The notes below the pieces were generated by a model. That model saw nothing but the letters and a program-made list of their open reading frames with translations, made no database searches and had not been told where the DNA came from. A stretch of DNA of 64,000 nucleotides from an uncultured Verrucomicrobiae bacterium (lineage in GTDB: Bacteria > Verrucomicrobiota > Verrucomicrobiia > Limisphaerales > DASXHY01). The stretch covers positions 5,150,456-5,214,455 of the forward strand of contig OY969416.1 of assembly GCA_963699145.1 (NCBI GenBank), in the 5' to 3' direction. The translations under genes were made by a program, and so were the position numbers. This document shows, piece by piece, positions 4,361 through 59,925 of this stretch (position 1 is the stretch's first letter; every line of letters begins with the position of its first letter).

Positions 4361-4383
4361 TTGGATGTTGGATGTTGGATGTT
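4361..4383. repeat. GGATGTT word repeat
   Basis: ttggatgttggatgttggatgtt belongs to the same word family as the long hairpin at 56967-57052. Confidence 0.7.
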
Positions 4384-5721: not shown

Positions 5722-5731
5722 CCGGCGCAAA

Positions 5732-7138
5732 ATGATTCCAGAAAATCCAAAAGACCAAATCCAGCCCCCCTCTGAAACGAGCCACCCCTCGTTGGAAGGC
5801 ATGCACGGCACCGTGGACGTCCCGCACAGCACTGCGGGATTTTGGAAACAATGGCGCGCGTTCGTGGGCCCCGCCATTCTCGTCAGCGTCGGTTACATGG
5901 ACCCCGGCAATTGGGGCACGGACCTGGCCGCCGGCGCGCAATTCAAATACGGCCTCCTCTGGGTCGTCGCGCTGGCCAGCCTCATGGCCATTTTCATGCA
6001 GGTCATCGCCGCGCGGTTGGGCGTCGTGGCCGGCAAAGATCTCGCCCAATGCTGTCGCGATTGGTATCCGCGCTGGACGCGCTGGCCGATGTGGCTGTTC
6101 TGCGAAATGGCCATCGGCGCCTGCGATCTCGCGGAAGTGCTCGGCAGCGCCGTCGCGCTCAACCTCATGTTCCACATTCCCCTGCTCTGGGCCGTCGTCA
6201 TCACCGGTTTCGATGTCCTCCTGCTGCTCACCCTGCAACGCTTCGGGATGCGCACCATCGAAGCCGTCGTGCTCGTGCTCGTCGCCACCATTTCCGCCTG
6301 TTACTTGATCGAAATTTTCGTGCTCCCGCAAACGCGCCCGGACCTGCTGGAAATGGGTCACGCTCTCATCACGCCCAGCCTCGCCAAACCCGGCATGATC
6401 TTTGTGGCCATCGGCATCATCGGCGCCACCGTCATGCCGCATAATCTTTACCTGCACTCGGCGCTGGTCCAGAGCCGGAAATTTCAGAAAGACGAAGCCT
6501 CCATTCGCGGCGCGATTCGTTTCAACAGCATCGATTCCGTCGCGGCGCTGACCGTCGCTTTCCTGGTGAACGCGGCCATCCTGGTGCTCGCGGCGCTCGT
6601 GTTCTACGGCAAATCCAGCGTGACCATCGCCGGGGGCGGCGTGGTGACCTTTGGCGCGGACACCGATTGGATTCGCATGGCTTACCTCACGCTCGCGCCG
6701 CTGCTCGGCACCGCGGCGGGCAGCGCCTTATTCGTCATCGCCCTGCTCGCCAGCGGCCAAAGCAGCACCATCACCGGCACACTCGCCGGCCAGGTGGTCA
6801 TGGAAGGCTTCATGCACTGGCGCATGCGTCCGTGGTTGCGCCGACTGATCACGCGCCTTTTAGCCATCATTCCCGCCATCCTCGTGATCGGCATCCGCGG
6901 CGACGGCAGCGTGAACGATCTGCTCACCTTGAGCCAGGTCGTGCTCGCGCTCCAACTGCCGTTCGCGATGTTTCCGCTGTTGCAATTCACCAGTTCCCGC
7001 AAAAGAATGGGCGCCTGGAAGCTCGGCTGGTTTTTGTTGCTTGCGGGTTGGGGCAGCGCGATAGTTATTACCGCCCTGGATGCGTACGGCCTGCCCGAAT
7101 CCCTCAAATCCGCCTGGCAGGTAATTTTCGGCCCATAA
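5732..7138 (+). CDS. mntH: Nramp-family divalent metal (Mn2+/Fe2+) transporter MntH
   Basis: GPAILVSVGYMDPGNWGTDLAAGAQFKYGLLWVV and ATVMPHNLYLHSALV are Nramp signatures. The protein has multiple TM helices. Confidence 0.9.
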   Translation: MIPENPKDQIQPPSETSHPSLEGMHGTVDVPHSTAGFWKQWRAFVGPAILVSVGYMDPGNWGTDLAAGAQFKYGLLWVVALASLMAIFMQVIAARLGVVAGKDLAQCCRDWYPRWTRWPMWLFCEMAIGACDLAEVLGSAVALNLMFHIPLLWAVVITGFDVLLLLTLQRFGMRTIEAVVLVLVATISACYLIEIFVLPQTRPDLLEMGHALITPSLAKPGMIFVAIGIIGATVMPHNLYLHSALVQSRKFQKDEASIRGAIRFNSIDSVAALTVAFLVNAAILVLAALVFYGKSSVTIAGGGVVTFGADTDWIRMAYLTLAPLLGTAAGSALFVIALLASGQSSTITGTLAGQVVMEGFMHWRMRPWLRRLITRLLAIIPAILVIGIRGDGSVNDLLTLSQVVLALQLPFAMFPLLQFTSSRKRMGAWKLGWFLLLAGWGSAIVITALDAYGLPESLKSAWQVIFGP

Positions 7139-7155
7139 AGCGTGTGAAGGAACAG

Positions 7156-7314
7156 TTCCAAGAAAACATCAAATTTTTGTGAAGCCACCTAAGAACCCAC
7201 AACGCTCCGTCACCCTCTCCGTCCCGAAGCGGGGGAGAGGGCTGGGGAGAGGTGGTGCTTCAGGGTTCAGGGGGCGAAGCTTCGGTCTTTTATCGGAGAA
7301 ATTTGTTTTTGGAA
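7156..7314. mobile_element. diverged second copy of the 4116-4308 MITE-like element
   Basis: About 105 nt (7207-7318) align with 4198-4310, including the ccctctcc..gggggagaggg hairpin and cagggttcagggggcgaagcttcgg. Degenerate termini are ttccaagaaaacatcaaattt and aaatttgtttttggaa. Confidence 0.5.
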
Positions 7315-7347
7315 ACGATTTAGCCATTCTGTTCGGGAAAGGCTGCC

Positions 7348-7764
7348 ATGTATAAAACCATTCTACTGACCTTGGACGGCACGCCCACCGACCGCGCGAT
7401 GATCGACCACGTCAAGCCGCTCGCCAAGCTGGGCTCGAGCCGGGTGGTTTTATTTCACGTGGCCGACGGCTGGGCCGCGCGCACGTACGGAAAAGACGCC
7501 GTCAGCCCCGAAATCAACGAAGACACCGCCTACCTGGAAAAAATCCGGGGCGAATTTTCCGCGGAAGGAATCAACGCCGATTTCGAACTGGCCTTTGGCG
7601 ATCCCGCGACTGAAATCGTGAAATGGGTCAAAAGCAACAGCTGCGATCTCGTCGCCATGAGCACCCACGGTCATCGATTCTTCGCCGACTTATTTTTCGG
7701 CACCACCGCCAGCCGCGTGCAGCACAACATCAGCGTCCCCGTGCTGTTGCTGCGAGCGAAATAG
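7348..7764 (+). CDS. universal stress protein (UspA family)
   Basis: 138 aa with MYKTILLTLDGT...VLFHV...LVAMSTHGHRFFADLFFGTTASRVQHNISVPVLLL. Confidence 0.85.
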   Translation: MYKTILLTLDGTPTDRAMIDHVKPLAKLGSSRVVLFHVADGWAARTYGKDAVSPEINEDTAYLEKIRGEFSAEGINADFELAFGDPATEIVKWVKSNSCDLVAMSTHGHRFFADLFFGTTASRVQHNISVPVLLLRAK

Positions 7765-7867
7765 TTCTCGCAGCGCCAAATCGCCCCCGGTTGGTAGGGC
7801 GCGTCGCTCCGCGCGCGCCGTCATTTCACTGCCACCAAACGGCGCGCGCGGAGCGACGCGCCCCCAC

Positions 7868-9025
7868 CTAAACCAGTTCGAGCACCTTCCCCAACTCCTC
7901 ATCCGTGTTGTAAAAATGCGGCGATAGCCGGATGTAATTCTGCGCTTTGCGATCCACGCGCAGCGACGTGACAATGTTCGCATCCCACAACTTCTGATGC
8001 ACGGGACCGAGATCCTTGCCGGGCGTATAAAATGAAACAATGCCGCTGGCGTTCTCCATCGGCGCATCCGCGTTCAGCACGGTGTAGCCCTTGCCCTGCA
8101 ACGCCGGCACGAGCAGCTTGCGTTTGCGCAGCAGTTCGCGCGCGATGTTTTCCACACCGATTTCCATCAGCAAATTCAACCCCGCCAGCAATCCAACAAT
8201 GCCCAGCAGGTTGAACGTGCCGGCCTCGTATTTGCGCGCGTCATTGCGGAACTCAATCAATTCCTGCGCCACAAAATTCGGGTTGTTCACGTTGTGCCAG
8301 CCGTAAATCGGCGGGTTCAACTTTTCCTGCACTTCCCGCCGAACATACATGATGCCCGCCCCGCACGGCCCCAGCATCCACTTGTGCGCATCCGCCGCCA
8401 GGAAATCGATATATTCCACCGTCGTCGGAAACGCGCCGACCGTCTGGATCGCGTCCACGCAAAACAAAATGCCGCGCTGCCGCAAATATTTTCCGATCTT
8501 CTCGATCTCGATGCGCCAGCCGCTGATGAAATGGCACGATGCCAGCGCCACCAGCCGCGTGTTTTCATCCACCTGCCCCATCACATCGATGGCCCGAATT
8601 GTGCCCAGCGCTTTGGTATTCATCAACCGCACCTGCACGCCCTGCTCCGCCAGCGCCGTCCACGGGTAAACGTTCGAAGGATAATCGTCGAAATAAACGA
8701 GGACGTTATCGCCGCGCCGGAACTTGAGTCCGCTCGCCACAAAGCTCAACGCGAGCGAGGTCGGCCCCACAAACGCCACTTCCTCCGGTTGGCAATTCAA
8801 CAGCCCGGAGATAATTTTGCGTCCGTCGGTAAGAATCTGCGGGTAAACAAAGCGCTCCTGGTCATTAGTCGTCGCGCGTTGCACGTATTCCGCGACTTCA
8901 TCGGCCACGCGCCTGGGCAACGGACAATCGCCCGCGTGCGCGAGAAAAATTTTCTTCTCCGCCACCGGAAACTCGCGGCGCCGCAGGCTCTCATCGGACA
9001 GAATTTCTTGTAAATTCATTCGCAC
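7868..9025 (-). CDS. class V aminotransferase-fold PLP-dependent enzyme (cysteine desulfurase/lyase-like)
   Basis: 385 aa with DFLAADAHKWMLGPCGAG (PLP-lysine motif) and a class V fold pattern. The substrate is not assignable. Confidence 0.8.
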   Translation of the reverse strand: MRMNLQEILSDESLRRREFPVAEKKIFLAHAGDCPLPRRVADEVAEYVQRATTNDQERFVYPQILTDGRKIISGLLNCQPEEVAFVGPTSLALSFVASGLKFRRGDNVLVYFDDYPSNVYPWTALAEQGVQVRLMNTKALGTIRAIDVMGQVDENTRLVALASCHFISGWRIEIEKIGKYLRQRGILFCVDAIQTVGAFPTTVEYIDFLAADAHKWMLGPCGAGIMYVRREVQEKLNPPIYGWHNVNNPNFVAQELIEFRNDARKYEAGTFNLLGIVGLLAGLNLLMEIGVENIARELLRKRKLLVPALQGKGYTVLNADAPMENASGIVSFYTPGKDLGPVHQKLWDANIVTSLRVDRKAQNYIRLSPHFYNTDEELGKVLELV

Positions 9026-9060
9026 AAAACTATTGGCTCGCGTCCCGAGTGCAAGCTTCG

Positions 9061-9260
9061 TTTAGTGGCACGGGCGTCCCGCCCGTGCGAACCGAAAGAC
9101 ACAAGCATCTCAAAAACTACGCAAAAACTGGTGATTCGCTGAAGGTTTTACAATTGAACGGGACCGTTTGAATTGTTCCGAAGGAACGACTGACGCGGCT
9201 GTCTCACAACTTCTACCCACGTTTCGATCCGCACGGGCGAGACGCCCGTGCCACTAAAAC
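9061..9260. mobile_element. MITE-like element bounded by inverted GC-hairpin termini
   Basis: tttagtggcacgggcgtcccgcccgtgcgaaccgaaa (9061-9097) matches the reverse complement of cgtttcgatccgcacgggcgagacgcccgtgccactaaaac (9220-9260). Each terminus is itself a hairpin of the form gcacgggcg-nnn-cgcccgtgc. Confidence 0.55.
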
Positions 9261-10252
9261 CCGCCCACCGCCTCCGAAACCTTGTTGAAGTACGTGATCC
9301 AGAACCAAATTACAAACCCGCCGCCGCCAATCAGGATCAGCAGGTAAATGCTCAAGGGAACCCATCGTGACAGCGTGCGGACTCGCTGCCCGCCGTCTTC
9401 CTGGTAATAATCCCGCAACCGCTCCAGCGTCTCGTCCAACTTGCCGCTGACTTCGCCCGCGACGTATTGGCTCGTGAAAATGTCGGGAAACTTGCGCGTT
9501 TGCTGGAGCATTTCCGCCGGCGTTTTTCCCGCCCGCAAATTGGGGATCCACGAATCCACCGTCCTTTGCAGCGCCATCGAACCGCTGGCTCTGCCCGCCA
9601 GCACCCAGGCTTCAATAATACTCACGCCCGCACTGATCAGCGCCTCGAGCGCCGCGGATAATCGCGCCACCGCCAGATGCCTCCGCGCTTTGCCCACCAG
9701 CGGAATCATGCCGAGCAAAAATTCCACCTTCGCGCGCCACGCTTCGCTGTGTTTGTTTTGCGTGGAATAAATCAACCCAAATGTCACCACGTAAACCACC
9801 AGCAATCCCACTAATGGCAGCACGGCAATGACAAGTGGAAACCAGAAAAAGAGCACCAGCGCGGCAACGAACGCGAGCATATGCAGCAAAAACGCGGGAT
9901 ACGCCAGTCCGCCAATAACCCGCCGGGCCACCTTCGCGCGCTCAACATAATAATCCCCCAACATGCGGAAGCACCGATCGAGCCGCCCGCTTTGTTCCCC
10001 CGCCTCGATGAGCGTAATATCAAAATCCGGCAGCCAATCGGGAATTGCGCGCATCGATTCGCCGAGCGCCTGCCCCCGTTGAATCAACCCCAGCAAATGT
10101 CCGGTCGCAACGCGATAACGTCGCGACGGAGAATTTTTCTGGAGCTGATCGAGGGAGTGGACAATGCCCAGCCCGGCGGAAGTCAGTTGCTGGAGCTGAT
10201 GATAAAAATCCGCCCGGCGATTGAGTTCGCTGGGCGTGACGATGAAAGGCAT
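9254..10252 (-). CDS. type II secretion system F-family (GspF/PilC-like) inner-membrane protein
   Basis: 332 aa containing two T2SSF-like repeats (LIEAGEQSGRLDRCFRMLGDYY and YVAGEVSGKLDETLERLRDYY) with TM helices. Confidence 0.8.
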   Translation of the reverse strand: MPFIVTPSELNRRADFYHQLQQLTSAGLGIVHSLDQLQKNSPSRRYRVATGHLLGLIQRGQALGESMRAIPDWLPDFDITLIEAGEQSGRLDRCFRMLGDYYVERAKVARRVIGGLAYPAFLLHMLAFVAALVLFFWFPLVIAVLPLVGLLVVYVVTFGLIYSTQNKHSEAWRAKVEFLLGMIPLVGKARRHLAVARLSAALEALISAGVSIIEAWVLAGRASGSMALQRTVDSWIPNLRAGKTPAEMLQQTRKFPDIFTSQYVAGEVSGKLDETLERLRDYYQEDGGQRVRTLSRWVPLSIYLLILIGGGGFVIWFWITYFNKVSEAVGGF

Positions 10253-11066: not shown

Positions 11067-11270
11067 AGCTTTGCTTCAAGATAATTTGGCGTTAAGCACT
11101 GTCAAACTCTTAATCAATAAAACAAGAACCCGCCCTCAAAATTTTCCACCAGATTCTTACCTAATGGTTATCCCCATTTTCTGGCATTTTCAAATCCTCG
11201 TATGCATTGTTATACAATCGTTGTCGTAAATCTCACGGCCACTTTATACCGCGCGAAGCGCGCATTCTGA

Positions 11271-20478: not shown

Positions 20479-21252
20479 ATGGGCGAAGCGTACTCTGACA
20501 ACATGGCAAACGTTGGAACCTTGATTCCCGCTCTGCTCATCGTGCTGTTCCTGGGGGCGGTGGTCGGGGGCACACTCGTCGCTTTTCTGGTCGCCGGTTG
20601 GCGCCGGAAACAAATCGCGGCCGAAGAAGCGTTTTCTCACAGCTTCTCGGATCTCACCATGTCGCTGAAACCCTCCCACGTGCAACGCCCTACCACCTGG
20701 CTCGCCGTGCGCAGCCGGAACGTTCACGCCGTGCAAGTCGCGCTTGGGCTCAACAATGTCCAGCCCTGCACCTGGCTGGAAGGGCTTTCCGGCGATGAAA
20801 AACTCTTTATCGCCCCGCCGGTGAAAGGCTGGGTGCTGATCATCGGCACCGGCCTTCCCGATCCGGCGGATGACGTGGATGTCTGCTTCCGCTTCCTGAC
20901 CAGCCTCAGCCAAAAGCTCGGTCAGGTGCAATTTTTCAAAGCCAATCGCGTCCTCGGCCATCACGCCTGGGTGCGCGTGGAAAACGGCCTCGTGACGCGC
21001 GGTTATGCCTGGGCCGGCAAAACGCTGTGGAACCAAGGCGCTCCCACCCGCGCGGAATCGGAATTTGGGCTGAAATGTTTTCAATATTTCGAATCGCCGG
21101 ATCAAACCTTCGAAGAATCCGAAATCGCCGCCGCCAACGTCGAAAAAGTTTCTTCCCTCGCCGCGCGTTGGAGCCTCGATCCCGCCAGCGTGGATGAAGA
21201 ACTGTTCGAACACGCATACGGAATTGCGGGCGAACCGCCAAGATTGTTTTAA
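20479..21252 (+). CDS. membrane-anchored protein of unknown function
   Basis: 257 aa with a single N-terminal TM (LIPALLIVLFLGAVVGGTLVAFLVAGW). No family recognised. Confidence 0.5.
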   Translation: MGEAYSDNMANVGTLIPALLIVLFLGAVVGGTLVAFLVAGWRRKQIAAEEAFSHSFSDLTMSLKPSHVQRPTTWLAVRSRNVHAVQVALGLNNVQPCTWLEGLSGDEKLFIAPPVKGWVLIIGTGLPDPADDVDVCFRFLTSLSQKLGQVQFFKANRVLGHHAWVRVENGLVTRGYAWAGKTLWNQGAPTRAESEFGLKCFQYFESPDQTFEESEIAAANVEKVSSLAARWSLDPASVDEELFEHAYGIAGEPPRLF

Positions 21253-21379
21253 AAGCTCCAAATCCCAAGCGTCCACGCTTCAGAGAAATTTCAGACATCA
21301 AACTCCAACACCGCATGTTTAGATTGGAGCTTGGGATTTGGCGCTTCTCTGGAGCTTGGACGCTTGGATTTTGGAGCTT
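21253..21379. repeat. GCTTGGGATTTGG word-repeat inverted pair
   Basis: aagctccaaatcccaagcgtcca (21253-21275) pairs with tggacgcttggattttggagctt (21356-21378) with 2 mismatches. An extra tggagcttgggatttgg lies at 21325-21341. Confidence 0.6.
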
Positions 21380-22026: not shown

Positions 22027-22037
22027 ATTTACGGCTG

Positions 22038-22102
22038 GCGATTTACGATATACGAACGCTTGAAAAAATCCAAACGGTCGTAAATCGTATATCGTAAATC
22101 GC
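22038..22102. repeat. TACGATTT-family hairpin with 18-bp perfect stem
   Basis: gcgatttacgatatacga (22038-22055) is the exact reverse complement of 22085-22102. It ends 2 nt before the ATG at 22105. Confidence 0.8.
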
Positions 22103-22104
22103 AA

Positions 22105-50240: not shown

Positions 50241-50933
50241 TCAGCGCCGATTTGAACGGCAGCGGCGCACCATCCAGAAGGCCGGGAGGGCCAAACCGAT
50301 TAAAGAAAGCGAAGAGGGTTCAGGAACCGGGGAAACGCTGATGTCGGTAAAATACACCCCCACCGGCGGCGCGGTGCCGTTGCCATTTTCGATGAGCCCC
50401 AACCGGAAAAAAGTGTCCGCCGGGGGCATATCAAAACCAACCGCGCCCATGTTCACCGTCACTGTGCCGGTAAATACCTGGCCGCTGGCCATTTGGGTGC
50501 CGTTCAGTTGGACCTCGGTACCATCCTGCGCATAATAACTGCTACCCGTGTTAACAAAGGATCCAATTTGGAGGAACGTGCCGGAGTTGGCTCCAAAGGT
50601 GGAGGTGTCCACACGCCAGTTATAACTGAGATTGTAACCGTTTGGGTTGGCAGCCGCGGCTTGCATCGCCTTGTAGAAATCAGAACCATCCGCGCCATGC
50701 CCCACGTTCGCTACCTGGAAGCCGCCCAGGGGAATGAAAATATAGTTGCTACCCCCAATGGTCGAAACGGTGGCGGGTGGGGTGCTGCCAAAACCTGAAT
50801 TCGACCAACCGTCGGGGGTGCCATCGGAGAAATCAAAATTAACCGACTGACTGTGCGCTTGAAACGCGCCCAAAAGAAGAGCAGCCAATGAGGCCAAGGC
50901 AACGGGGGACTTCATAAGTGCCAGAATAGTCAC
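50241..50933 (-). CDS. PEP-CTERM sorting-domain protein
   Basis: It has a signal peptide. The C-terminus is VPEPSSLSLIGLALPAFWMVRRCRSNRR (PEP motif, TM helix, basic tail). Confidence 0.78.
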   Translation of the reverse strand: MTILALMKSPVALASLAALLLGAFQAHSQSVNFDFSDGTPDGWSNSGFGSTPPATVSTIGGSNYIFIPLGGFQVANVGHGADGSDFYKAMQAAAANPNGYNLSYNWRVDTSTFGANSGTFLQIGSFVNTGSSYYAQDGTEVQLNGTQMASGQVFTGTVTVNMGAVGFDMPPADTFFRLGLIENGNGTAPPVGVYFTDISVSPVPEPSSLSLIGLALPAFWMVRRCRSNRR

Positions 50934-51741: not shown

Positions 51742-51981
51742 TTACAGCAATCCCAAACGTTGCAACATAATACGCAATCGCAGTCGCTCCGTGGAATTCA
51801 TATCCAACAGCCAAGCCGTTGTGCGGCCAATTGCGGTTTTTCCACGGATATTCGCGCCCTCAAAAAGGAAGTGTTCGTCCCAGATATCTTTTCGGGGATT
51901 AAAAAGGAGCGAAGGGAGGCGGCAATATTTGCAGCGGTTCCCCGCGCGCTGGCGGATGAACTGGCTCGTCGCCGCGTCCAT
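51742..51981 (-). pseudogene. HNH-endonuclease-like gene lacking the catalytic HNH core (in-frame internal deletion)
   Basis: IRQRAGNRCKYCRLPS runs directly into LLFNPRKDIWDEHFLFEGANIRGKTAIGRTT. In intact members of this family, about 45 aa including H..H...N..C..CN lie between these two segments (from memory). Confidence 0.5.
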
Positions 51982-52250
51982 CAGCTCGCTTTCGTATGAC
52001 TTAAAACCAATCGCGCTTCCGCCTGAAGCAGCCCCAGCAAAGTGTTGGCGCGCACCATGGCTTCCAATTCCTCTACTTCCGCTGGAGTTAAAGTTCCTTC
52101 GGTGCGCTGTTCTGAAAGCTGGTCGTAACGGGATTGGACTTCTGAATCGGCACGAAGATTAACCAAGGCACGGGCCAGATCAGTCGTGAATTGAAGCGGC
52201 AGTGGCCGGAGCAACTTCTCGAGAGCCGTGGTTTCGCCATCAGTCTTCAT
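51981..52250 (-). CDS. small helical protein, unknown function, coupled to the HNH-like gene
   Basis: 89 aa with a 1-nt overlap with the downstream gene. It starts 45 nt after the ATPase stop on the same strand. Confidence 0.5.
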   Translation of the reverse strand: MKTDGETTALEKLLRPLPLQFTTDLARALVNLRADSEVQSRYDQLSEQRTEGTLTPAEVEELEAMVRANTLLGLLQAEARLVLSHTKAS

Positions 52251-52295: not shown

Positions 52296-55200
52296 TTAGG
52301 ACGCCCCGCCCTTCAACTGCCCCGTGACGCGCTCAATCCATTCGTTGCCGGGGCGCGCGTAGGGGCGGAACATTTCGGTGTAGCCTTCGCGGTCGTTGTA
52401 GTAGAGGGCGCGATGCATGCCGAGCGTGGCGGCGTCTGGGGAATCGATGAGGCTCGCGGAGTCGCTGGCGCTCATCTGGAAGAGGACGCGCATTTCGAAT
52501 TCGCTCAGGTTTTTGCGGCCGAGGAAACGGTTGATGTTGTTGAAGCTGTCGCAGGTGGCGATGACGTGGATTCCGTGGGCGGGACCGTCGCTGATCAAGC
52601 TCAACAAAATGCTCGCGGGGGAAGCTGTGTCCGTGGTGGAGAAACTGAACTCGTCTTCCTGGCGGAGCTTTTTGTAGTTCTGCAGATCCTGGATGAGCAC
52701 GAAGGTTTCCGGGCCGTTGTTCGATTGCTCATCGCCGCTGCGGCGTTTCAATTCTTCCGCGAGTGCGTTCATGGCGTCGCCCACGTCGCCGCCTTTGACG
52801 CGGGTGAGTTCGTGCGGAATGCCTTGCACGATGCGGTCGAGGAATTCGCGCTCGGGCGATTCGGGCGCCGTGCTGTCGAGCAAAACGAAGCGCACGGCGC
52901 CGCGCGGATATTGCGCGCTCAACGCGACCAGCGCCACAGCGAGCATGGAGAGTGAGGCTTCGGCATTCTGACCGACGACCAGCAGGTTGTTGCCGCTTTG
53001 TTTTTGGAACACGGCTTCGGTGGGGCCTTTGATGGAATTGGGCGCACCGAGCCAGGCGCGCGATTGTGCGAGGGCTTTCGCGGGTTTCGTTTCGAGAAAA
53101 ATGCGCAACGGGAGATTTTCGTTCACGTCGGCGGGCGCGTTACCTTCAAACACGAATGGGCCGGGAAAATTCTTGCCGGTGCGATCGGCGCGTTCGCGAA
53201 TTTGCGCGAGATAATTGTCGCGCACGCTCTCGGGCAGCCACACGGCCTGGAAGGGGCTGTTGCCTTCGATGGCGCCGGCGGAATCGTTGTAGATGCCTTC
53301 GCCGGGGCGCGAGAGCAAGCGCGGTGCGGGATTATCCTGGTCCATGATGAGGTAGGCGTCGGCTTCGTTGCATTGCAGCGCGATGCGAATCACCATCTGG
53401 CCGAGCGTGGCGCGCGCGAGGGTGTAAGCGCCGCCGAGCGTTTGCGAGCCGAGAATCACGTGGATGCCGAACGCGCGGCCCTGACGCACGATGCGGTCCA
53501 GCAGGACCGCCGCCTGTTGCGAGACGTGATCTTCCTCGGTGAAGAATTCCTGGAACTCGTCAATCATCAGCAGCGAGCGGGGCATGGGCTCCGTGCCGCC
53601 GGAACGTTTGTAACCGGCTACGTCCTGCACGCCTTGCGCGCGAAATAAATCACCGCGACGGCGCAATTCCATGTCGATGCGCTCCAGCACGCTCAGGCCG
53701 AATTGGCGATCGCTCTCGATGGCCACGACTCTCGCGTGCGGTAAATGGCGGTTGGCGTAGCTCTTGAACTCGACGCCTTTTTTGAAGTCGACGAGATAAA
53801 ATTCCACCTGCTCGGGGCTGCACCAGAGCGCGAGGTTGGTGATCATCACATGAAACAGCGTGGATTTGCCGGAACCAGTTTTGCCCGCGATAAGCGCGTG
53901 CTGGCGGGTGGCTTTGCCGATTTCGAGGTACTGCAATTTCGTGGCGCCCGAGCGGCCAATCGGCACGCGCAATTCCTGGCTGGTTTCCTCGCTCCAAATC
54001 TGGCCGTTTTTCGGCGCGATTTGTTCGAACGGCACTTCGACGCGATTGGAGTCCTTCCCTTTCTTGCCGACTTCACGCAGGAAATGCGTGGCGAATTCGG
54101 GCGACGGCGGCGGGTCGAGTTGGATTTGCGAGCCGGGCACACGCCAGTTCGCGAGCACGAAATCATTTTCGCGCCGCACGAGCGTGACGCTGTTTTTGCG
54201 CAGTTCATCCGCCACGAAATCCTGCGGCACCGCATTGCGCTGGTCCCAATGCATGAGCGTGTAAACGCCGCAACGCGCGCCGCTGGTGGCGATGTTGCGC
54301 AGCCGCTTGGCGGCGGTGTCGCTGAAGTTCACGGGGAATGAGGCGATGACGAGGATGTGATATTTTTCCGCGATGGTGCCGGCCTGCGCGTTGTATTCAG
54401 CGATGGTCTCGTATTCGTTGCGCAGATACATCTGGATGACTTTTTCCATGTGCTCGTTCAACTCGGCGAGCTTCTCCTCGAACTGCGCCGCTTGCGTCCA
54501 GATGCGGCTGTTGATGTGGCTCTCCTCGAAGTCGGCGAGGTGCATGAGGCCGGCGAAATTCTGGCCGAGGCCGACGGGATCGAAAATCGTGAAGCTTAAT
54601 TTCCCGGCGGGGTTCGTCGAGAGCAGCCGGAAAATAATGTTGTTGATGGCGGCGATGGCCTCCTCGTGGCCGACTTTCGGCGTCTCAAAAAGAATGGAGC
54701 CTTGCAGCGGATAGGTCAGGAGCAGCGGCACGGAGAAGTTGGCGGGGCCGGGCAACGCGAGGCGCGGGTCTTTCGGCATGGCTTCGGCGGCCTTGGACAT
54801 ATCGACGTCCAGCGAGCCGAACTTGGCGGCGTTTTTGAATTCGAGCGGCGGATCCCAGTCTTTCCAGAGCGGAATTTCCCACGGCGGAAACATTTTTTCC
54901 GAGAACTCATTCGCGGCGCGAATGGAAGCGTAAATGGGTTCCACGATGCCCTTCCATTCGGCGACCATCGCGTCCCACAGGCCCTTAAATTCCGACTCAA
55001 GCCGGCTCATTTTCGCGCGATGCGTGTCTAACATTTCCTTCGCTTCCGCATCCGTGCCTGAGCGCAACCGCGCGAGGGTCAGGGTGCGGTCGCGTTCGAC
55101 TTCGCGCATGCGCTGGTCGTGAGTGGCTTCGTTTTTCGCAAAGGCGCGGCGGGCTTTTTCGTCGACTTTGACCGGGCGGGTGCCGCGCAATTCGATGGCG

Positions 55201-56183
55201 TCCTTCACCGATTGTTTCCATTTCTGGTTCATCGCGGCGATGGCATCGGCGGTTTCATTGCGGAGGCGGACTTGTTCGTGCTGATTGGTCGCCTTCGCCT
55301 TGTCCAAACACGCCCCCATGAGCCAGCGGGATTTGGCGAGGTTGCCGGCAATCTCCCGGGCGCGCTCGCTCGCCTGTGAACCGCCCACGAGGTAGACAAT
55401 GAAGACCAGCACGAAGACGCCGGCGGAAATACCGGCATACATCATGGGGATATTTTTAATGCCCATTTGCGGCAGGAAGGGCACCGCAACCGCAAAACCC
55501 AGCAGCAAGATTGCCCAGAGCCAGATCGGCAGGGCGCGAAAAATCGAGGCTGGAAAGAGGCCGCGGAATTTTCCGATATCATCGCCGGCTTTTTTTTCCA
55601 ACCGGTTCAGCTCGTCGAGCAGTTGGTTTTCGTCGCCGGACAAATCGGGCTGCGGCCATTCGCGGTCGGGGGCGAGGAATTTGCGAAAGCGGCCGTAGCC
55701 GCCGAAGGCGTTGTGCGCCGAAACTTCCAATTCCGCGAAGCGATTCTGGCTTTCGCCGACGCGGCGGTTGAAATCTTCGAAGGCGGCGGCGGTCGCGGTC
55801 AACTTTTCATCGCGCACGCGTTCGGCCTCGAGCGAGCCGGTCTGGACGCTGTATTTGATGTCGGCTTCCTGCTGGGTGATTGCGTCCAGAACGCGTTTGC
55901 GGGCGTTGATGTGCGCCTGGTTCAAGCGCGCCTTGCGCTGCTCGAACCCGGTGTTGATCCGGCTGCTGGTGGCGTCAAAATCAGCAGTGGTTTTGGCGAT
56001 TGTTTCCGTCGCGGTTGTGGATTGCGCGCCTTTCGCGGTATCGAACGCCCTGGTTTCCACGGCGGAGCGCGTGCGGAAATCGGCGTTTAATTTTTCTTCG
56101 CGCGCGGCGAAATCGCGCAGCGCGTTTTTCAGCGTCTCCAACAACGCTACCATGTCCTTGGCACCAAAATTATTATTACTCAC
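52296..56183 (-). CDS. membrane-anchored FtsK/SpoIIIE-family ATPase with three P-loop-type modules (EssC/EccC-like)
   Basis: 1295 aa. There are two TM helices at aa ~217-268 (nt 55380-55535). The intact Walker A is IAGKTGSGKST (GKTGSGKS = 53862-53885) and the Walker B is LLMIDEFQEF. Degenerate FtsK-like modules flank the active one. The GTG start overlaps the stop of the upstream small gene. Confidence 0.9.
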   Translation of the reverse strand: MSNNNFGAKDMVALLETLKNALRDFAAREEKLNADFRTRSAVETRAFDTAKGAQSTTATETIAKTTADFDATSSRINTGFEQRKARLNQAHINARKRVLDAITQQEADIKYSVQTGSLEAERVRDEKLTATAAAFEDFNRRVGESQNRFAELEVSAHNAFGGYGRFRKFLAPDREWPQPDLSGDENQLLDELNRLEKKAGDDIGKFRGLFPASIFRALPIWLWAILLLGFAVAVPFLPQMGIKNIPMMYAGISAGVFVLVFIVYLVGGSQASERAREIAGNLAKSRWLMGACLDKAKATNQHEQVRLRNETADAIAAMNQKWKQSVKDAIELRGTRPVKVDEKARRAFAKNEATHDQRMREVERDRTLTLARLRSGTDAEAKEMLDTHRAKMSRLESEFKGLWDAMVAEWKGIVEPIYASIRAANEFSEKMFPPWEIPLWKDWDPPLEFKNAAKFGSLDVDMSKAAEAMPKDPRLALPGPANFSVPLLLTYPLQGSILFETPKVGHEEAIAAINNIIFRLLSTNPAGKLSFTIFDPVGLGQNFAGLMHLADFEESHINSRIWTQAAQFEEKLAELNEHMEKVIQMYLRNEYETIAEYNAQAGTIAEKYHILVIASFPVNFSDTAAKRLRNIATSGARCGVYTLMHWDQRNAVPQDFVADELRKNSVTLVRRENDFVLANWRVPGSQIQLDPPPSPEFATHFLREVGKKGKDSNRVEVPFEQIAPKNGQIWSEETSQELRVPIGRSGATKLQYLEIGKATRQHALIAGKTGSGKSTLFHVMITNLALWCSPEQVEFYLVDFKKGVEFKSYANRHLPHARVVAIESDRQFGLSVLERIDMELRRRGDLFRAQGVQDVAGYKRSGGTEPMPRSLLMIDEFQEFFTEEDHVSQQAAVLLDRIVRQGRAFGIHVILGSQTLGGAYTLARATLGQMVIRIALQCNEADAYLIMDQDNPAPRLLSRPGEGIYNDSAGAIEGNSPFQAVWLPESVRDNYLAQIRERADRTGKNFPGPFVFEGNAPADVNENLPLRIFLETKPAKALAQSRAWLGAPNSIKGPTEAVFQKQSGNNLLVVGQNAEASLSMLAVALVALSAQYPRGAVRFVLLDSTAPESPEREFLDRIVQGIPHELTRVKGGDVGDAMNALAEELKRRSGDEQSNNGPETFVLIQDLQNYKKLRQEDEFSFSTTDTASPASILLSLISDGPAHGIHVIATCDSFNNINRFLGRKNLSEFEMRVLFQMSASDSASLIDSPDAATLGMHRALYYNDREGYTEMFRPYARPGNEWIERVTGQLKGGAS

Positions 56184-56388
56184 AATCTTGTTGGACCTTT
56201 TTCAATAGTTCATCGAGTTTTTCCACCACGCCGACCGTTTTGTCGACGCCGGCGAACAGTTCCTGCAAATATTTCCGCTCGAACTCCTGGGCTTTAGCGT
56301 CGCGCCAGTAATTTTTCGTGTCCTCCCATTTCAAGGAAAGCTCTTTCGACAGGCCGACCAGGCGCGCTTTGCTGCCGGACATGCTCAT
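56176..56388 (-). CDS. 70-aa helical WXG100-like protein (W-x-D variant)
   Basis: MSMSGSKARLVGLSKELSLKWEDTKNYWRDAKAQEFERKYLQELF... A strong SD (AAGGAGG) lies 7 nt upstream. There is an ATGA overlap with the upstream gene and an 8-nt overlap with the ATPase start. Confidence 0.65.
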   Translation of the reverse strand: MSMSGSKARLVGLSKELSLKWEDTKNYWRDAKAQEFERKYLQELFAGVDKTVGVVEKLDELLKKVQQDCE

Positions 56389-56945
56389 GGGGTTCCCTCC
56401 TTTGGCGGTTCGGGCGCGCCAGACGGCTCCGCGGGAGTTTCGGGAGGCGGCGAGGCATCGCCGGCGCTGCCCATGCGGACGTCGGCGTAGGCTTCGAGCG
56501 AGCGAACGACGTTGTTGAGATAGGCAAGCGCCTTGGGCCCCTCGCTGGTCACGAAACTTTGGAATTGATCCACCTGTTTGACCAGGGGTTCGGAGCGATT
56601 CTCCAACTCGCGATCCCACTTTTTCAACAGGGCGAGTTTTTCCTGCGCTTCATCACAAGCCTGCTTGGCGCGGCGCACCAACAACTGTTGCGCGGACGAA
56701 ATCTCCTGAAATTTCGACATGGAAACGCTGAACAACTCCGCCTGGGCGCGCTCCAATTTTTTGCCGCGCGCTTTCATTTCGCCTTCCCACTTACGGCGCT
56801 GGTCGTTTTGGAGCCATTGCTTGGCGCGGGCGACTTCGTTGGCCATTTCCTCCAACGCGGGGCGCGCTTTGCTCAAGTAAATGACCAAGGCCGATCGAAA
56901 AGCCTCGATGGCTTCGACGGAAGTAACTTGAGCGCGATCGGCCAT
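56385..56945 (-). CDS. 186-aa all-helical protein with W-E-G motif and Pro-rich tail
   Basis: The ATG at 56945 gives MADRAQVTSVEAIEAFRSAL...QWLQNDQRRKWEGEMKARGKKLERAQAEL... The tail is PPPETPAEPSGAPEPPKEGTP. Confidence 0.65.
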   Translation of the reverse strand: MADRAQVTSVEAIEAFRSALVIYLSKARPALEEMANEVARAKQWLQNDQRRKWEGEMKARGKKLERAQAELFSVSMSKFQEISSAQQLLVRRAKQACDEAQEKLALLKKWDRELENRSEPLVKQVDQFQSFVTSEGPKALAYLNNVVRSLEAYADVRMGSAGDASPPPETPAEPSGAPEPPKEGTP

Positions 56946-56966
56946 GCTAGAATTGCAAAAACATCC

Positions 56967-57052
56967 AACATCCAACAACCAACATCGAACATCCAATGAC
57001 TCCAACACGCCAAATCTGGATGTTGGATGTTCGATGTTGGTTGTTGGATGTT
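56967..57052. repeat. 30-bp perfect inverted repeat (GGATGTT word family) inside the operon
   Basis: aacatccaacaaccaacatcgaacatccaa (56967-56996) is the exact reverse complement of 57023-57052, with a 26-nt loop. It lies between the first and second genes of the operon. Confidence 0.9.
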
Positions 57053-57059
57053 CCCATTC

Positions 57060-57332
57060 CTATCGTTGATTAAGATACTCCTCAATCCGTTGCGCCTTGC
57101 GCAGCAGATACGGCGTGTGCTCCTTGGAGAGGTCGATGAATTTTTTCAGCGCTTTCATCGCGGTCTTGAATTCATCGGCAAATTTCGCGTGCTCCTGGTC
57201 GCCCCAGGTGTCGCCGAGGGCGGCGAAACGCGCGTGCAGGAGGGTGAGGCGGTTTTCGAGATCGGTGTTGAATCGCTGCAATTCGTCCGCGAAGCGGCGG
57301 ACTTTCTCGGGATCCATGATTGCCTGGGCCAT
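57060..57332 (-). CDS. 90-aa WXG100-superfamily-like helical hairpin protein (W-G-D variant)
   Basis: MAQAIMDPEKVRRFADELQRFNTDLENRLTLLHARFAALGDTWGDQEHAKFADEFKTAMKALKKFIDLSKEH... An SD (GAAAGGAA) precedes the ATG at 57332. Size and helix-turn-helix layout match WXG100. Confidence 0.7.
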   Translation of the reverse strand: MAQAIMDPEKVRRFADELQRFNTDLENRLTLLHARFAALGDTWGDQEHAKFADEFKTAMKALKKFIDLSKEHTPYLLRKAQRIEEYLNQR

Positions 57333-57717
57333 GCTATTCCTTTCGTTGAATGACTGACACACTATCGCGAAGAATTGTCCATCGCGCTATCAGAAATCTT
57401 CGCGGCGGAAAAACCCTGCCGAGGCTCGGAAATTCCCAACGTCGCGGCGCAAGTGTCGTTCGCATTCGATGTCAGTATATGAATAAACCCACAAATCGTT
57501 AGCGTCCAATTTGGCGGGAGGTCGAGCGGGCGAGACGGAAATTTAAGGTAATTGCCGATTCCTGTGCGCGAAATGAATCTGAGAATTGAAGCAGGTTGAA
57601 TCCTCACGCGCCCTTCCCCCTCACCCTGCCCCTTGGGGAGAGAATTCCCCGAAAGATTCGCTCATTAACCCCTGAGCCGATAAGAAGGAATGGGATTTCG
57701 ACATTGGCGACGAGTTC

Positions 57718-57738: not shown

Positions 57739-57891
57739 CACCAGGGTTCGGGGAGGTTTCTACGATTCATCCGGGGAGGACATTCGTCACTTATTAGCTC
57801 ATCGACAATGCCTGTGAATAAATCTTATCTTATTTCAGTAGACAATTTATATTTTTTTTATATTCATTGTCGCCCGAATCTGCAAACCACT

Positions 57892-59925
57892 ATGAAAAAG
57901 ACGAGTCTTGTTCTTTGTACCGTTTGTTTGTTGGCCTTCCAATCCGCGTTCGCGGAGCCATCCACGATCTCGGGCGATTTCTTTGCTGCGCTGCGCAATG
58001 GTGATGCGCGGGGGATTCGCCAGGCGCTCGACAGCGGCGCTTCGGTCAAAGCGCATGATGAGCGCGGCAATACGCCTCTAATGCTCGCGGCGGTTTATGG
58101 CGACGTGGCTTCGATGAAACTGCTTTTGGAACGCGGCGCGCAGGTGAATGTGGCCAATGCGGAAGGCGCGACTCCGCTGATTCGCGCGGCGTATGATTTT
58201 GACAAGGCGCGCTTGCTCGTGGAGCGCGGCGCCGATGTGAACGCTCGCTCGGCGATGGGCCAGACGGCATTGATGCTGGCGGCGCGACCGGTTAATTCGC
58301 ATCGCACGGTGAAACTGTTGCTCGACCACGGCGCAGATGCGAAGGCCACGAATAATTGGGGCGCGACCACGCTGATGGCTGCGGCGGCTGGCGGGGATGT
58401 GGAAACGGCGCGGTTGCTCATCGAGCACGGAGCGGATGTGAACGCACAACCGATCCCGGACCACGTGGCGTTTATTTTCAATGGCGCGCGGACGCCGTTG
58501 ATGTGGGCGGCGTATCGCGGCGATTTGGCCATGATCAAGACGTTGATCGCGGCCGGAGCGGATGTGAACGCGGAAGGCACGCTGGGAACGCCGCTGGAGC
58601 AAGCGACGTGGAATGATTCCCTGGAGGCATGCAAATATTTGCTGGAGCACCATGCGAATCCAAATTACGTCTCGCATTTCGACACTTTCACGGCGCTGCA
58701 TTGGGCGTCTTCAACGGAGCAACCGGATGCGCGCATGGTCAGCCTGTTGCTGGCGCATGGCGCGAATCCCAACATCGGCGGTGGTGAAAGCGTGGATGCT
58801 TTTCTCAGCGTGGACCAGACGCCGCTGATGCTCGCGCGGCGTCGCGGCGAGACGCCGATTGTCAAAGCGCTGCTGGCGGCGGGCGCGACCAATGAAACGC
58901 CGGACACTATTTCCAGCGTGACGGCGCCCGCTCGCGCGCTGCCGGCGCGGCTGGATGGCGAAACGGTTCGTTCGGCGATGGCGCGCGCGGTGGGGCCGTT
59001 GCAGACGACGGCGTTGGAATCGAAAAAGGTTTTCGTGAGCCATTCGAGTCACCAGGACTGCGTCTCGTGCCATCAACAATATTTGCCGCTCGCCGCGACC
59101 AGCCTGGCGCGCAAACAGAATGTGGCGGTCGATAGCGAGGCGAACCGCGACCTTATTAAATTGGTCAGCGGCGGTGAGTTGCCGTTGATTGAAGTGGATT
59201 GGCAGCCGCTTTTCCATCCGGACCCGGCGTATGCGAAAGGATATTCCATGCTCGCTTTTTCGCTATCCGATTTGCCGGCGAGCGAATTCACCGACGCGTG
59301 GGTGCATCATCTCGCGGCCATCCAGGAAGCCGACGGCCGTTGGTGCAGCAATCTTCCGCGTCCGCCGATCCAATCCGGCGACATTCCGGCGACTGCACTC
59401 GTGATCAATGCGCTGCAAAAATATCCATTGCCCGGCCGCAAGGCGGAATTCGCGGAACGCGTGGAGCGCGCGGGCAAGTGGCTCGCGAAAGCGAAAACCG
59501 ACAACACCGACGAGGCGATTTACCAAATCCTCGGGCTGAAATGGGCCGGGGAATCGCCCCGGCACATTCAACCGCTCGCGAAGGCGTTGCTGGCGCAACA
59601 GCGCGCGGACGGCGGCTGGGCGCAATTGCCGACGTTGAAGAGCGATGCTTACGCAACCGGCCAGGCGGTTTATTCGTTGTGCGTGGGCGCGGGAATTCCG
59701 ACGAACGATCCGGCCATCGAACGCGCGCGCAAATATTTGCTCGCCACGCAACTCGAGGACGGCACGTGGTATGTGCATCGCCGCGCGTTTCCGTTTCAGC
59801 CGACGATGAAGAGCGGGTTTCCGCATGGGCGTGATGGTTGGATTTCAGCGGCGGGAACAAGTTGGGCGGTGATGGCGCTGAGTTTGCCGGCGCCGGAGAC
59901 GCAGGTGGCGGCGAAGGCGCCGTGA
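57892..59925 (+). CDS. secreted ankyrin-repeat protein with CXXCH motif and prenyltransferase/squalene-cyclase-like alpha-alpha toroid repeats
   Basis: The ATG at 57892 gives signal peptide MKKTSLVLCTVCLLAFQSAFA. Multiple ANK repeats follow (GNTPLMLAA, GATPLIRAA, GQTALMLAA and others). CVSCH lies at 59059-59073. QW-like repeats are QEADGRWCS, QRADGGWAQ and QLEDGTWY. Confidence 0.8.
   Translation: MKKTSLVLCTVCLLAFQSAFAEPSTISGDFFAALRNGDARGIRQALDSGASVKAHDERGNTPLMLAAVYGDVASMKLLLERGAQVNVANAEGATPLIRAAYDFDKARLLVERGADVNARSAMGQTALMLAARPVNSHRTVKLLLDHGADAKATNNWGATTLMAAAAGGDVETARLLIEHGADVNAQPIPDHVAFIFNGARTPLMWAAYRGDLAMIKTLIAAGADVNAEGTLGTPLEQATWNDSLEACKYLLEHHANPNYVSHFDTFTALHWASSTEQPDARMVSLLLAHGANPNIGGGESVDAFLSVDQTPLMLARRRGETPIVKALLAAGATNETPDTISSVTAPARALPARLDGETVRSAMARAVGPLQTTALESKKVFVSHSSHQDCVSCHQQYLPLAATSLARKQNVAVDSEANRDLIKLVSGGELPLIEVDWQPLFHPDPAYAKGYSMLAFSLSDLPASEFTDAWVHHLAAIQEADGRWCSNLPRPPIQSGDIPATALVINALQKYPLPGRKAEFAERVERAGKWLAKAKTDNTDEAIYQILGLKWAGESPRHIQPLAKALLAQQRADGGWAQLPTLKSDAYATGQAVYSLCVGAGIPTNDPAIERARKYLLATQLEDGTWYVHRRAFPFQPTMKSGFPHGRDGWISAAGTSWAVMALSLPAPETQVAAKAP

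Follow-up and report, generated by a model that had tools for sequence, protein, structure and literature searches.

Can a WXG100 protein and a single EssC/EccC-like membrane ATPase make up a type VII secretion system (T7SS) in a bacterium with two membranes? The question is raised by four adjoining genes, g1 to g4, in a stretch of DNA from an uncultured Verrucomicrobiae bacterium (contig OY969416.1, positions 5,150,456 to 5,214,455), whose 64,000 nucleotides (nt) we call the window; all coordinates are positions in it. An earlier note on this DNA had proposed that the four genes form a stripped-down, T7SS-like export operon. They lie on the minus strand, exactly where that note had placed them.

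57060-57332, minus strand: g1, 90 amino acids (aa), T-W-G-D at residues 42-45, Shine-Dalgarno-like AAAGGAA sequence upstream.
56385-56945, minus strand: g2, 186 aa, with K-W-E-G-E and a Pro-rich tail.
56176-56388, minus strand: g3, 70 aa, with Y-W-R-D, preceded by AAGGAGG.
52296-56183 including the stop codon, minus strand: g4, the ATPase, 1295 aa, GTG start.

The locus is T7SS-like and minimal, and was correctly read as such. It is a member of a published class that combines a solo WXG100 protein with a distinct YueA/EssC-like ATPase, sharing the three structural hallmarks of that class but not the "mobile" one. Anantharaman et al. 2012 is reportedly a source for this class, beside the two studies discussed below. 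The g2 and g3 genes share an ATGA overlap at 56385-56388, and g3 and g4 overlap through GTGAGTAA at 56176-56183; both overlaps, like the motifs TWGD, KWEGE, YWRD and AAGGAGG picked out at first inspection, are present in the sequence.

How widespread is this arrangement? A scan of one genome per GTDB species gave at least 594 stretches encoding relatives, the best 80 of which were analysed as loci. The order g1-g2-g3 directly upstream of an ATPase homologue is kept in about 70 of these 80, most of the misses being contig ends, and the 4-nt g2/g3 overlap recurs in about 50. Together with the length of g1, which is exactly 90 aa in all 70 homologues, this shows that g1 to g3 are genes and not chance open reading frames (ORFs). 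The best 80 loci are nearly all labelled Verrucomicrobiota (Limisphaerales/Pedosphaera, Chthoniobacterales, Verrucomicrobiales, Methylacidiphilales and Akkermansiaceae), so that the four-gene synteny for which the earlier note had proposed a check holds across the phylum. Five cassette-bearing metagenome-assembled genomes (MAGs L006, L043, L057, L070 and L056) carry the labels Bifidobacteriaceae, Bifidobacterium, Klebsiella or Bacteroidetes, and are probably mis-binned or mislabelled. Identity to the window proteins is 64-90% for g1, 44-67% for g4, 27-74% for g3 and 28-58% for g2, the small g1 thus being better conserved than the ATPase itself. ATPase identity follows taxonomy and the four-gene order is phylum-wide, while the flanking genes differ between genomes; all-against-all ORF clustering in the 80 loci revealed no further gene conserved with the cassette. 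A g1-like gene occurs once per locus, and the window contains no other ORF resembling g1, g2 or g3. The surroundings are ordinary chromosome (SecY, EF-G, PolA), and this housekeeping context and vertical pattern do not fit the "mobile versions of T7SS" under which the class was described. The cassette appears here as a vertically inherited, stand-alone four-gene operon with an ATPase anchored in the inner membrane.

The class was set out by Zhang et al. in 2012 (Table 1, note 6) as a solo WXG100 protein with a three-module YueA-like ATPase whose middle module is active, Verrucomicrobia being named (PMC3482391). WXG100 proteins in Verrucomicrobia go back to Sutcliffe 2011, as cited in a later review (PMC10765036). 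Bell et al. 2024 described an ATPase with three modules, the central one active, an N-terminal coiled coil of more than 200 aa and no transmembrane (TM) helices, which is encoded within CoCoNuT loci in defence islands, together with a coiled-coil protein and a pair of WXG100 proteins (PMC11090510). The cassette agrees with these descriptions in its N-terminal helical or coiled-coil region of more than 200 aa, in a stand-alone WXG100 gene adjoining the ATPase (in about 70 genomes), in three FtsK/HerA-type modules (the P-loop ancestry of the first not being significant by sequence) and in Walker motifs confined to the middle module (Walker A at residue 767, Walker B at residue 871). It also agrees in an accompanying coiled-coil protein, in a second, shorter WXG-like protein without the canonical motif, and in its host phylum. 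It differs from the CoCoNuT-associated and plasmid relatives examined, none of which has TM helices, in the two that it conserves, and from the published class in a g2 without a nuclease domain, a chromosomal, single-copy location at each locus and the lack of linked Ter, vWA, McrBC or toxin genes. The system is therefore less novel than had been implied. Since the class and its architecture have been in the comparative-genomics literature since 2011-2012, and g1 is already annotated as a T7SS target, the value of the present analysis lies in refining and delimiting the class, not in its discovery. What is new is the four-gene synteny throughout the phylum, the TM anchor, which the soluble relatives lack, the recognition of g2 and g3 as families, a W-x-D signature common to g1, g3 and HP0062 of Helicobacter pylori, the very high conservation of g1 and a recurrent hairpin behind it.

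As for g1, it is a WXG100 protein, as first proposed. It matches the Pfam WXG100 family (PF06013) with 40.6 bits (E = 3.2e-10), above the gathering score of 27.3 bits. When a profile of 44 family members was compared with the PDB, the matches were, in order, H. pylori HP0062 (3FX7/2GTS, E = 5e-10), Bacillus anthracis EsxB, Staphylococcus aureus EsxA and EsxA-like proteins of Streptococcus agalactiae. Public entries for its homologues read [quoted passage not shown]. The protein is a helical hairpin of the W-x-D type, most members having W-Q-D instead of W-x-G, and W43, D45 and F51 are invariant. So is an N-terminal motif, M-x-Q-A-I-M-D-P-E-x-V-R-R-F-A. The most conserved part is the C-terminal tail, invariant from P74 onwards (P-Y-L-L-R-K-A-Q-R-I-E-E-Y-L-x-Q-R, or more sparingly P74-x-L-x-R-K-A-x-x-I-x-x-Y-L-x-Q). 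Across 43 verrucomicrobial homologues, with identities of 64-90%, the mean column identity is 81%. None of g1, g2 and g3 has a signal peptide or a hydrophobic segment, so any export of these proteins would be Sec-independent.

The ATPase is built from six parts, all on the minus strand.

55539-56183, minus strand: g4 residues 1-215, cytoplasmic, all-helical, coiled-coil-like N-terminal region (AlphaFold2, AF2, secondary structure for residues 96-215), without a Pfam match.
55380-55535, minus strand: two TM helices, at about residues 217-238 and 248-268 (Kyte-Doolittle 19-residue maxima of 2.21 and 2.34), separated by a loop of about 9 residues.
54852-55379, minus strand: residues 269-444, helical stalk (AF2 helices 248-331 and 338-431, low confidence).
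54000-54851, minus strand: residues 445-728, first alpha/beta module, without Walker A or B, with many invariant columns and beta-alpha-beta structure in the model.
53229-53999, minus strand: residues 729-985, active FtsK/SpoIIIE module, to which the Pfam, NCBIfam and PDB alignments all map.
52299-53228, minus strand: residues 986-1295, degenerate FtsK-type module, with GQNAEASLS for Walker A and FVLIQDL for Walker B.

The GTG start is supported by the conservation of residues 1-10 in tblastn matches. The helical N-terminal region stands where EssC has its FHA domains. The two TM segments, which the earlier note had also seen, are exactly two in g4 and are kept in 51 of 53 homologues; the pair gives the N-in/C-in topology of EssC/EccC. 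The AF2 model of g4 (residues 96-1295, pLDDT 60, pTM 0.35) is poor and served for secondary structure and a local fold search only.

That g4 has three P-loop-type modules, as had been suggested, holds with a qualification. The model contains three alpha/beta modules, and hhalign relates the C-terminal module to the active one (probability 93%, E = 2.8e-7, 198 columns), making it a degenerate duplicate; the NCBIfam EccCb alignment likewise covers residues 731-1213. However, a motif scan finds one Walker A (GKTGSGKS, residues 767-774, DNA 53862-53885) and one Walker B (LLMIDE, residues 871-876, DNA 53556-53573), so the middle module is by its motifs the only catalytically competent one, and homology of the first module to the others is not significant by hhalign, though the expected motif positions align. 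This first module, which is common to the plasmid relatives, is probably a degenerate P-loop fold, judging from the model, and the counterpart of the DUF/pseudo-ATPase domain or of the "D1" of earlier descriptions. Hidden Markov model (HMM) alignments place the active module on D1 of EssC/EccCa; numbered in this way, the first module would match the DUF/pseudo-ATPase domain and one of D2 and D3 would be missing. Bell et al. instead number the modules D1 to D3, with D2 active (PMC11090510). By analogy with D3 of EccC/EssC, the C-terminal module is a candidate substrate-docking module.

Could g4 simply be a DNA translocase of the FtsK, SpoIIIE, TraB or TcpA type, serving segregation, conjugation or DNA uptake, with the small genes unrelated to it? 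Its one recognisable Pfam domain is PF01580 (E = 9.5e-33), and there are weak matches to FtsK (E of about 1e-9), to TcpA and to SspH/HerA-type defence ATPases. Yet its NCBIfam scores are 120.5 bits for EssC, 118.2 for EccCa and 96.1 for EccCb against 35.5 for FtsK, EssC/EccC thus lying some 80 bits above FtsK. By sequence, the PDB matches are EccC of T. curvata (E = 1e-30), EccC5 (1e-27), YukB (4e-22), FtsK (1e-9) and TcpA (4e-7), the TcpA match amounting to 31 bits over one module. Against Pfam, TrwB reaches E = 0.1. Foldseek with the low-confidence model aligns the three-ATPase cytoplasmic fragment of T. curvata EccC over 932 columns (E = 1.4e-19) and EssC D2-D3 at about 1e-13, while FtsK and TcpA align over one module (200-400 columns, about 1e-8). 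Nor does g4 have the architecture of FtsK/SpoIIIE, a four-TM (4TM) N-domain with a single alpha/beta motor and a gamma KOPS-binding domain: it matches PF01580 only, lacks the FtsK gamma, alpha and 4TM domains and scores 35.5 bits where the FtsK equivalog cut-off is 1566. Verrucomicrobium spinosum carries a separate, complete FtsK with PF17854, PF13491 and PF09397, including the gamma domain (PMC12283558). Conjugative ATPases such as TraB, TcpA and TrwB have a single domain and a link to a relaxase, a type IV secretion system (T4SS) or a plasmid, which g4 does not share; a Pfam scan of the larger ORFs of the window, though not of the window as a whole, found no relaxase or T4SS gene. Finally, g4 is strictly coupled to a WXG100 gene. 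A DNA translocase is therefore highly improbable, and neither an FtsK or TcpA placement nor, among the window ORFs scanned, a conjugative setting, both named at the outset as grounds for abandoning the T7SS-like reading, was encountered. A defence system was also considered and dropped, the PADLOC matches (SspH, mad8, HerA) arising through the generic FtsK/HerA domain only.

The EssC/EccC assignment is itself a qualified one. With 118-120 bits for EssC/EccC against 35 for FtsK, g4 stands closer to the former than to FtsK or TcpA, but it misses the equivalog cut-offs (778 bits for EssC, 509 for EccCa) by a wide margin, it has a single catalytic module, and its nearest outside relatives are not canonical EssC/EccC proteins. 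Because its scores are so far under the cut-offs, we regard it as EssC/EccC-like and not as an orthologue.

The two companion proteins fit a WXG100-type reading unequally. The AF2 model of g2, a soluble protein, is one long antiparallel helical hairpin (mean pLDDT 81), with helices at 2-77 and 84-154, followed by a disordered, variable, Pro/Ser-rich tail (159-186). It is a generic long coiled-coil hairpin with no recognisable WXG100 character. WXG100, LXG and other known folds were all rejected for it: Pfam and NCBIfam give no match and no recurrent Pfam family among 44 members, Foldseek returns generic coiled-coil hairpins only (none at E <= 1e-3), and its hhalign match to g1 is weak. The family is nevertheless large, with 1864 representative clusters at E <= 1e-3, and has neither a Pfam model nor a name. 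The likeness of g3 to WXG100 proteins is weak. In an alignment of 47 sequences W21, W28-x-D30, F36 and C69 are invariant, and the spacing W-x-D-(5)-F is the same as in g1. Two of the 47 members match Pfam WXG100 (8.7e-4) and one WXG100_2 (5.9e-5), and three of the top four matches of a g3 HMM to the plasmid loci are the WXG100 proteins there (E = 0.005-0.04). On the other side, the window protein matches no curated family, hhalign against g1 is not significant (probability 2%), and a profile search of the PDB with g3 returned nothing. Motif spacing and these sporadic matches suggest that g3 is probably a soluble, shortened WXG100-like hairpin. Its C-terminus, D-C-E, is near-invariant (56179-56187), with Cys in all 47 sequences. 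Since the Cys is kept where the overlap with the ATPase start differs and an extra C-terminal residue is present, conservation suggests that C69 is a functional cysteine (disulfide, metal or modification) and not just a dual-coding constraint.

How far, then, does the cassette resemble known T7SSs? It shares with T7SSb (EssC/YukB with EsxA/YukE) and T7SSa (EccC with EsxA/B) a WXG100 hairpin and a two-TM membrane ATPase with tandem FtsK-type modules; the active module aligns to D1, and g1 keeps the canonical WXG100 N-terminal motif (M..I.M.PEE[VI]R). In the core definition of a T7SS, g1 is the WXG100 partner. It differs from both in the number of catalytic modules (one, where they have two or three) and of P-loop folds (three, where they have four, a DUF plus D1-D3), in lacking FHA domains, any linked Ess, Esa, Ecc or MycP partner and a recognisable YxxxD/E-type signal, and in its classical diderm host. 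At the level of the 80 loci there is no conserved neighbour resembling EssA/B, EsaA/B, EccB/D/E or MycP, as had been noticed for the window, and Pfam and NCBIfam give no FHA or YukD match on g1 to g4. The locus thus lacks what defines T7SSb (EssA, EssB/YukC, EsaA/YueB, EsaB/YukD and FHA on EssC) as well as what defines T7SSa (EccB, EccD, EccE, MycP and an EccC with a DUF and three ATPase domains), g4 having three modules in all. The recently defined T7SSc-j, which occur in Bacillota and Actinomycetota only, share a core of TsxC ATPase and TsxA WXG100 protein, lineage-specific accessories and extra small WXG-related partners, but most have a ubiquitin-like TsxB and further membrane proteins, none of which was found at the cassette (Garrett, Higginson & Palmer 2024; PMC11217815). 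That the host is a diderm is in keeping with a secretin at 970-2859, and that such systems are experimentally uncharacterised in diderms agrees with a review that calls the Gram-negative ones functionally unconfirmed (PMC10765036).

Relatives outside the phylum were sought by tblastn of PLSDB with g4 residues 430-1295. Only two records cover at least 80% of the query, while canonical EccC/EssC proteins cover about one third (one module). Three plasmid ATPases are informative.

L081 (from NZ_CP126457.1), 5468-9436: Rhodococcus plasmid ATPase, the closest relative outside Verrucomicrobiota, with 31% identity at 88% coverage (E = 1e-92); 1322 aa, no TM helices, TerD-like N-terminus.
Deinococcus plasmid ATPase: 26% identity, 96% coverage, E = 3e-53; 947 aa, no TM helices, two WXG-like genes, near helicases.
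Helicobacter sp. plasmid ATPase: 29% identity, 52% coverage, E = 4e-41; 823 aa.

The Rhodococcus gene lies beside genes for TerD, DUF475 (TerC-like), an 87-aa W-K-D WXG100 protein and a 73-aa W-R-D protein. This TerD-like fusion beside TerD/DUF475 ties the ATPase clade to tellurite-resistance-type stress loci. From such comparisons the verrucomicrobial ATPase appears to belong to a distinct "middle-module-active" clade, whose other members are mostly soluble and found in Ter-stress, helicase or toxin contexts. They raise the possibility that nothing is exported at all, and that g4 drives a membrane-tethered, ATP-dependent remodelling or signalling machine akin to the WXG-FtsK modules of Ter, TerY-P and CoCoNuT systems, with g1 to g3 as cytoplasmic adaptors or regulators, for example in envelope stress or against invaders. 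The nearest full-length relatives, from Rhodococcus and Deinococcus, are soluble; the architecture of Bell et al. has the same three modules without TM helices and sits in defence islands (PMC11090510); purifying selection on g1 is very strong, as for an internal partner; and no outer-membrane component is linked. Against this, two TM helices are kept in 51 of 53 verrucomicrobial ATPases, no conserved Ter, vWA, McrBC, kinase or phosphatase gene stands beside the cassette, the PADLOC matches are generic, and every experimentally studied pair of WXG100 protein and EssC/EccC exports (PMC10765036). We consider a non-exporting machine a serious possibility, if a minority one.

The Helicobacter plasmid points elsewhere. 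Its gene order is an HP0062-like WXG100 protein (LGDTWGD), an HNH endonuclease, an SMI1/KNR4 immunity protein, a 77-aa protein and the ATPase. The likeness to Helicobacter is close on several counts: HP0062 of H. pylori, whose genome also encodes an FtsK/SpoIIIE protein (HP0066), is the best solved match to g1 and has W-x-D for W-x-G, the plasmid homologue also has LGDTWGD, a three-module ATPase of the same clade adjoins it, and a small protein is encoded directly upstream of the ATPase. The differences are the HNH toxin and its immunity gene, an ATPase of about 820 aa that lacks a long N-terminal region and a clear pair of TM helices, and the lack of a recognisable g2 homologue. Might the verrucomicrobial cassette likewise deliver toxins, its cargo of WXG/LXG-type polymorphic toxins being encoded elsewhere and g1 to g3 being co-secreted chaperones or "EsxA-like" helpers? 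Besides the Helicobacter operon, HP0062/HP0066 and an HNH/EndoVII nuclease have been placed together under the name "WXG100 secretion system" (PMC4978471), verrucomicrobial toxins are listed among the polymorphic toxin families of Zhang et al. (PMC3482391), and a further study has EsxA needed for T7SSb toxin export (PMC13355648). However, across about 70 genomes the vicinity of the cassette has no conserved gene for a toxin or its immunity protein. A second WXG-like ORF is absent from the window, each locus holds a single g1-like gene, and conflict systems are not typically inherited vertically throughout a phylum with so little change in sequence. A 6-kb insert between g3 and g4 in one locus (L012) was tried as cargo and rejected, as it consists of insertion sequence (IS), Vsr, HNH and toxin-antitoxin material. 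Toxin delivery is accordingly unlikely, although the cargo of the Helicobacter relative, a toxin with its immunity protein, is of a type that needs export and in this respect counts for export in general.

The reading towards which we lean, with restrained confidence, is that a hexamer of g4 uses ATP to carry folded helical-hairpin proteins through the inner membrane, independently of Sec, with g1 docking on its C-terminal module. In this mechanism g4 would assemble, like FtsK/EssC/EccC ATPases, into a hexamer whose 12 TM helices form or gate an inner-membrane channel. The g1 protein, its transcript in excess owing to the hairpin behind the gene, would dimerise into a four-helix bundle, with itself as HP0062 and S. 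aureus EsxA do or else with g3, and would dock through its invariant C-terminal tail on the last, degenerate module of g4. The one active module, by hydrolysing ATP, would then drive folded helical proteins into the periplasm, and g2 may serve as co-substrate or as adaptor for the N-terminal coiled coil of g4. Hexamer formation, docking, translocation and destination are all inferred, and export to the periplasm is plausible but unproven.

For export count the WXG100 nature of g1, the greater closeness of g4 to EssC/EccC than to FtsK or TcpA, the agreement of its module layout with the published class, its two conserved TM helices, the strict order and translational coupling of the genes in about 70 genomes, the hairpin with its U-run behind g1 and the strongly conserved tail of g1. 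Several findings weigh against export. There is no experimental evidence for secretion by any member of this class (PMC10765036), and the closest outside relatives have no TM helices and lie in Ter-stress or helicase contexts, so that export is not obviously ancestral. The ATPase stays below the EssC and EccC equivalog thresholds (120 against 778 and 118 against 509 bits), and its full-length model is of low confidence (pLDDT 60). The published C-terminal pattern of WXG100 proteins, HxxxD/ExxhxxxH (PMC3935865), is not clearly present on inspection of the g1 alignment, nor is YxxxD/E; the tail offers a partial A80-x3-E84-x2-L87 fit only, which overruns the C-terminus. An identity of 64-90% across a phylum is unlike that of typical secreted effectors. 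In the 80 loci, the cassette has no conserved partner in the outer membrane or in any other membrane. We go no further than a cautious preference for export because the class is untested, the nearest outside relatives are soluble, and an internal role would account just as well for the very high conservation of g1 and for the absence of a linked outer-membrane factor.

The very high, phylum-wide conservation of g1 suggests a cell-biological role instead of a weapon. A more specific version of this idea, which we put forward as speculative and rather doubtful, is that the cassette is a housekeeping, phylum-defining inner-membrane translocon whose membrane part is the g4 hexamer alone, g1 being a structural or envelope component (a periplasmic assembly or envelope-integrity factor) and not part of a conflict or mobile system. 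If so, this would be the simplest natural T7SS-type machine, in a classical diderm. More generally, if g1 is exported, then a WXG100 protein, a single EssC-like membrane ATPase and two small helical proteins suffice for T7SS-type transport, such export reaches classical Gram-negative envelopes, and the fate of the substrate in the periplasm becomes a question. It is open to testing, since cultured genera appear to carry the cassette, to judge from the MAG labels Prosthecobacter, Chthoniobacter, Pedosphaera and Limisphaera. The supplements of a transposon sequencing (Tn-seq) essentiality study of V. spinosum contain no WXG or SpoIIIE entry.

Two features bear on expression of the cassette.

56967-57052, minus strand: intergenic RNA hairpin between g1 and g2, perfect 30-bp arms of AACATCC-like heptamers followed by a GUUUUUG run.
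57360-57368, minus strand: GCGATAGTG, a possible -10-like promoter element, ahead of the g1 start by about 30 nt (weak evidence).

The hairpin has a minimum free energy of -59 kcal/mol (z = -7.0 against shuffles). The gap between g1 and g2 exceeds 80 nt in 19 of 70 loci, most of them with analogous long hairpins of unrelated sequence, and is 1-21 nt in about 50. This recurrence at the junction suggests that decoupling g1 from g2-g4 is tolerated or useful, and we see in the hairpin a candidate partial terminator or messenger RNA stabiliser that would raise g1 over g2-g4; a stem followed by a U-run fits a more abundant first gene product, and g1 may thus be made in excess. As for the promoter, TTGCGATAGTG-like strings occur at the same distance in several close relatives (L008-L011, L018 and L019), and a sigma-70 consensus scan made no call at 57360-57368.

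Junction hairpins occur in the window and in L002, L006, L007, L008, L010, L012, L016, L020, L021, L029, L036, L043, L045, L069 and L075. Their arms are mostly short tandem repeats of about 6-8 nt with a lineage-specific unit (AACATCC, CACGAAT, GGATTTC, CAAACAC, TGACAAG and others), as if a palindromic element had been gained repeatedly at one site or were turning over fast there. The hairpin is not specific to the cassette, long palindromes being found elsewhere in the window and the loci, and is instead a general genomic feature that recurs here. Other intergenic palindromes lie at 7797-7863, 21251-21348 and 22036-22104, with stems of 20-25 bp, one GC-rich and one of CGATTTACGATATACGA-like units, and 4363-4383 is a lone (AACATCC)x3 run without an inverted partner; the genome seems rich in REP-like hairpins. 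In L012, the g4 homologue itself contains a palindrome (about 11107-11174, stem of 23 bp), at an in-frame insertion (…SLSLAPVGGEGRGEGASVRDGRTPHPAPLPSKGRGEQ…) between modules 2 and 3, where a REP-like element appears to be tolerated within coding sequence.

The flanks of the cassette in the window comprise a PepSY-like protein, small ORFs without assignment and an Ank/cyclase-like protein. The last (57808-59925, plus strand, divergent from g1) has 705 aa, an N-terminal signal-like segment, multiple ankyrin repeats and a C-terminal part that matches the N and C domains of squalene-hopene cyclase (terpenoid-cyclase/prenyltransferase-like alpha/alpha toroid). Such a fusion is unusual for an exported bacterial protein and is not kept beside the cassette elsewhere. 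Just 3' of g4 (51742-52250, minus strand) are two abutting ORFs, of 89 aa and then 79 aa with C-K-Y-C, whose layout resembles a toxin-antitoxin or HNH-type pair; they have no Pfam match and are not conserved with the cassette. In 6 of the 80 loci, of Chthoniobacterales type (L051, 62-3034, and five others), g1 is preceded on the opposite strand by a gene for a Ser/Thr protein kinase. As T7SS variants of Gram-positives often include kinases and FHA proteins (PMC11217815), this one may be regulatory. Farther out, 50241-50933 on the minus strand encodes a protein of 230 aa that begins with a signal peptide and has a PEP-CTERM sorting motif (VPEPSS…RR) at its C-terminus, which is typical of Verrucomicrobiota and agrees with the verrucomicrobial assignment.

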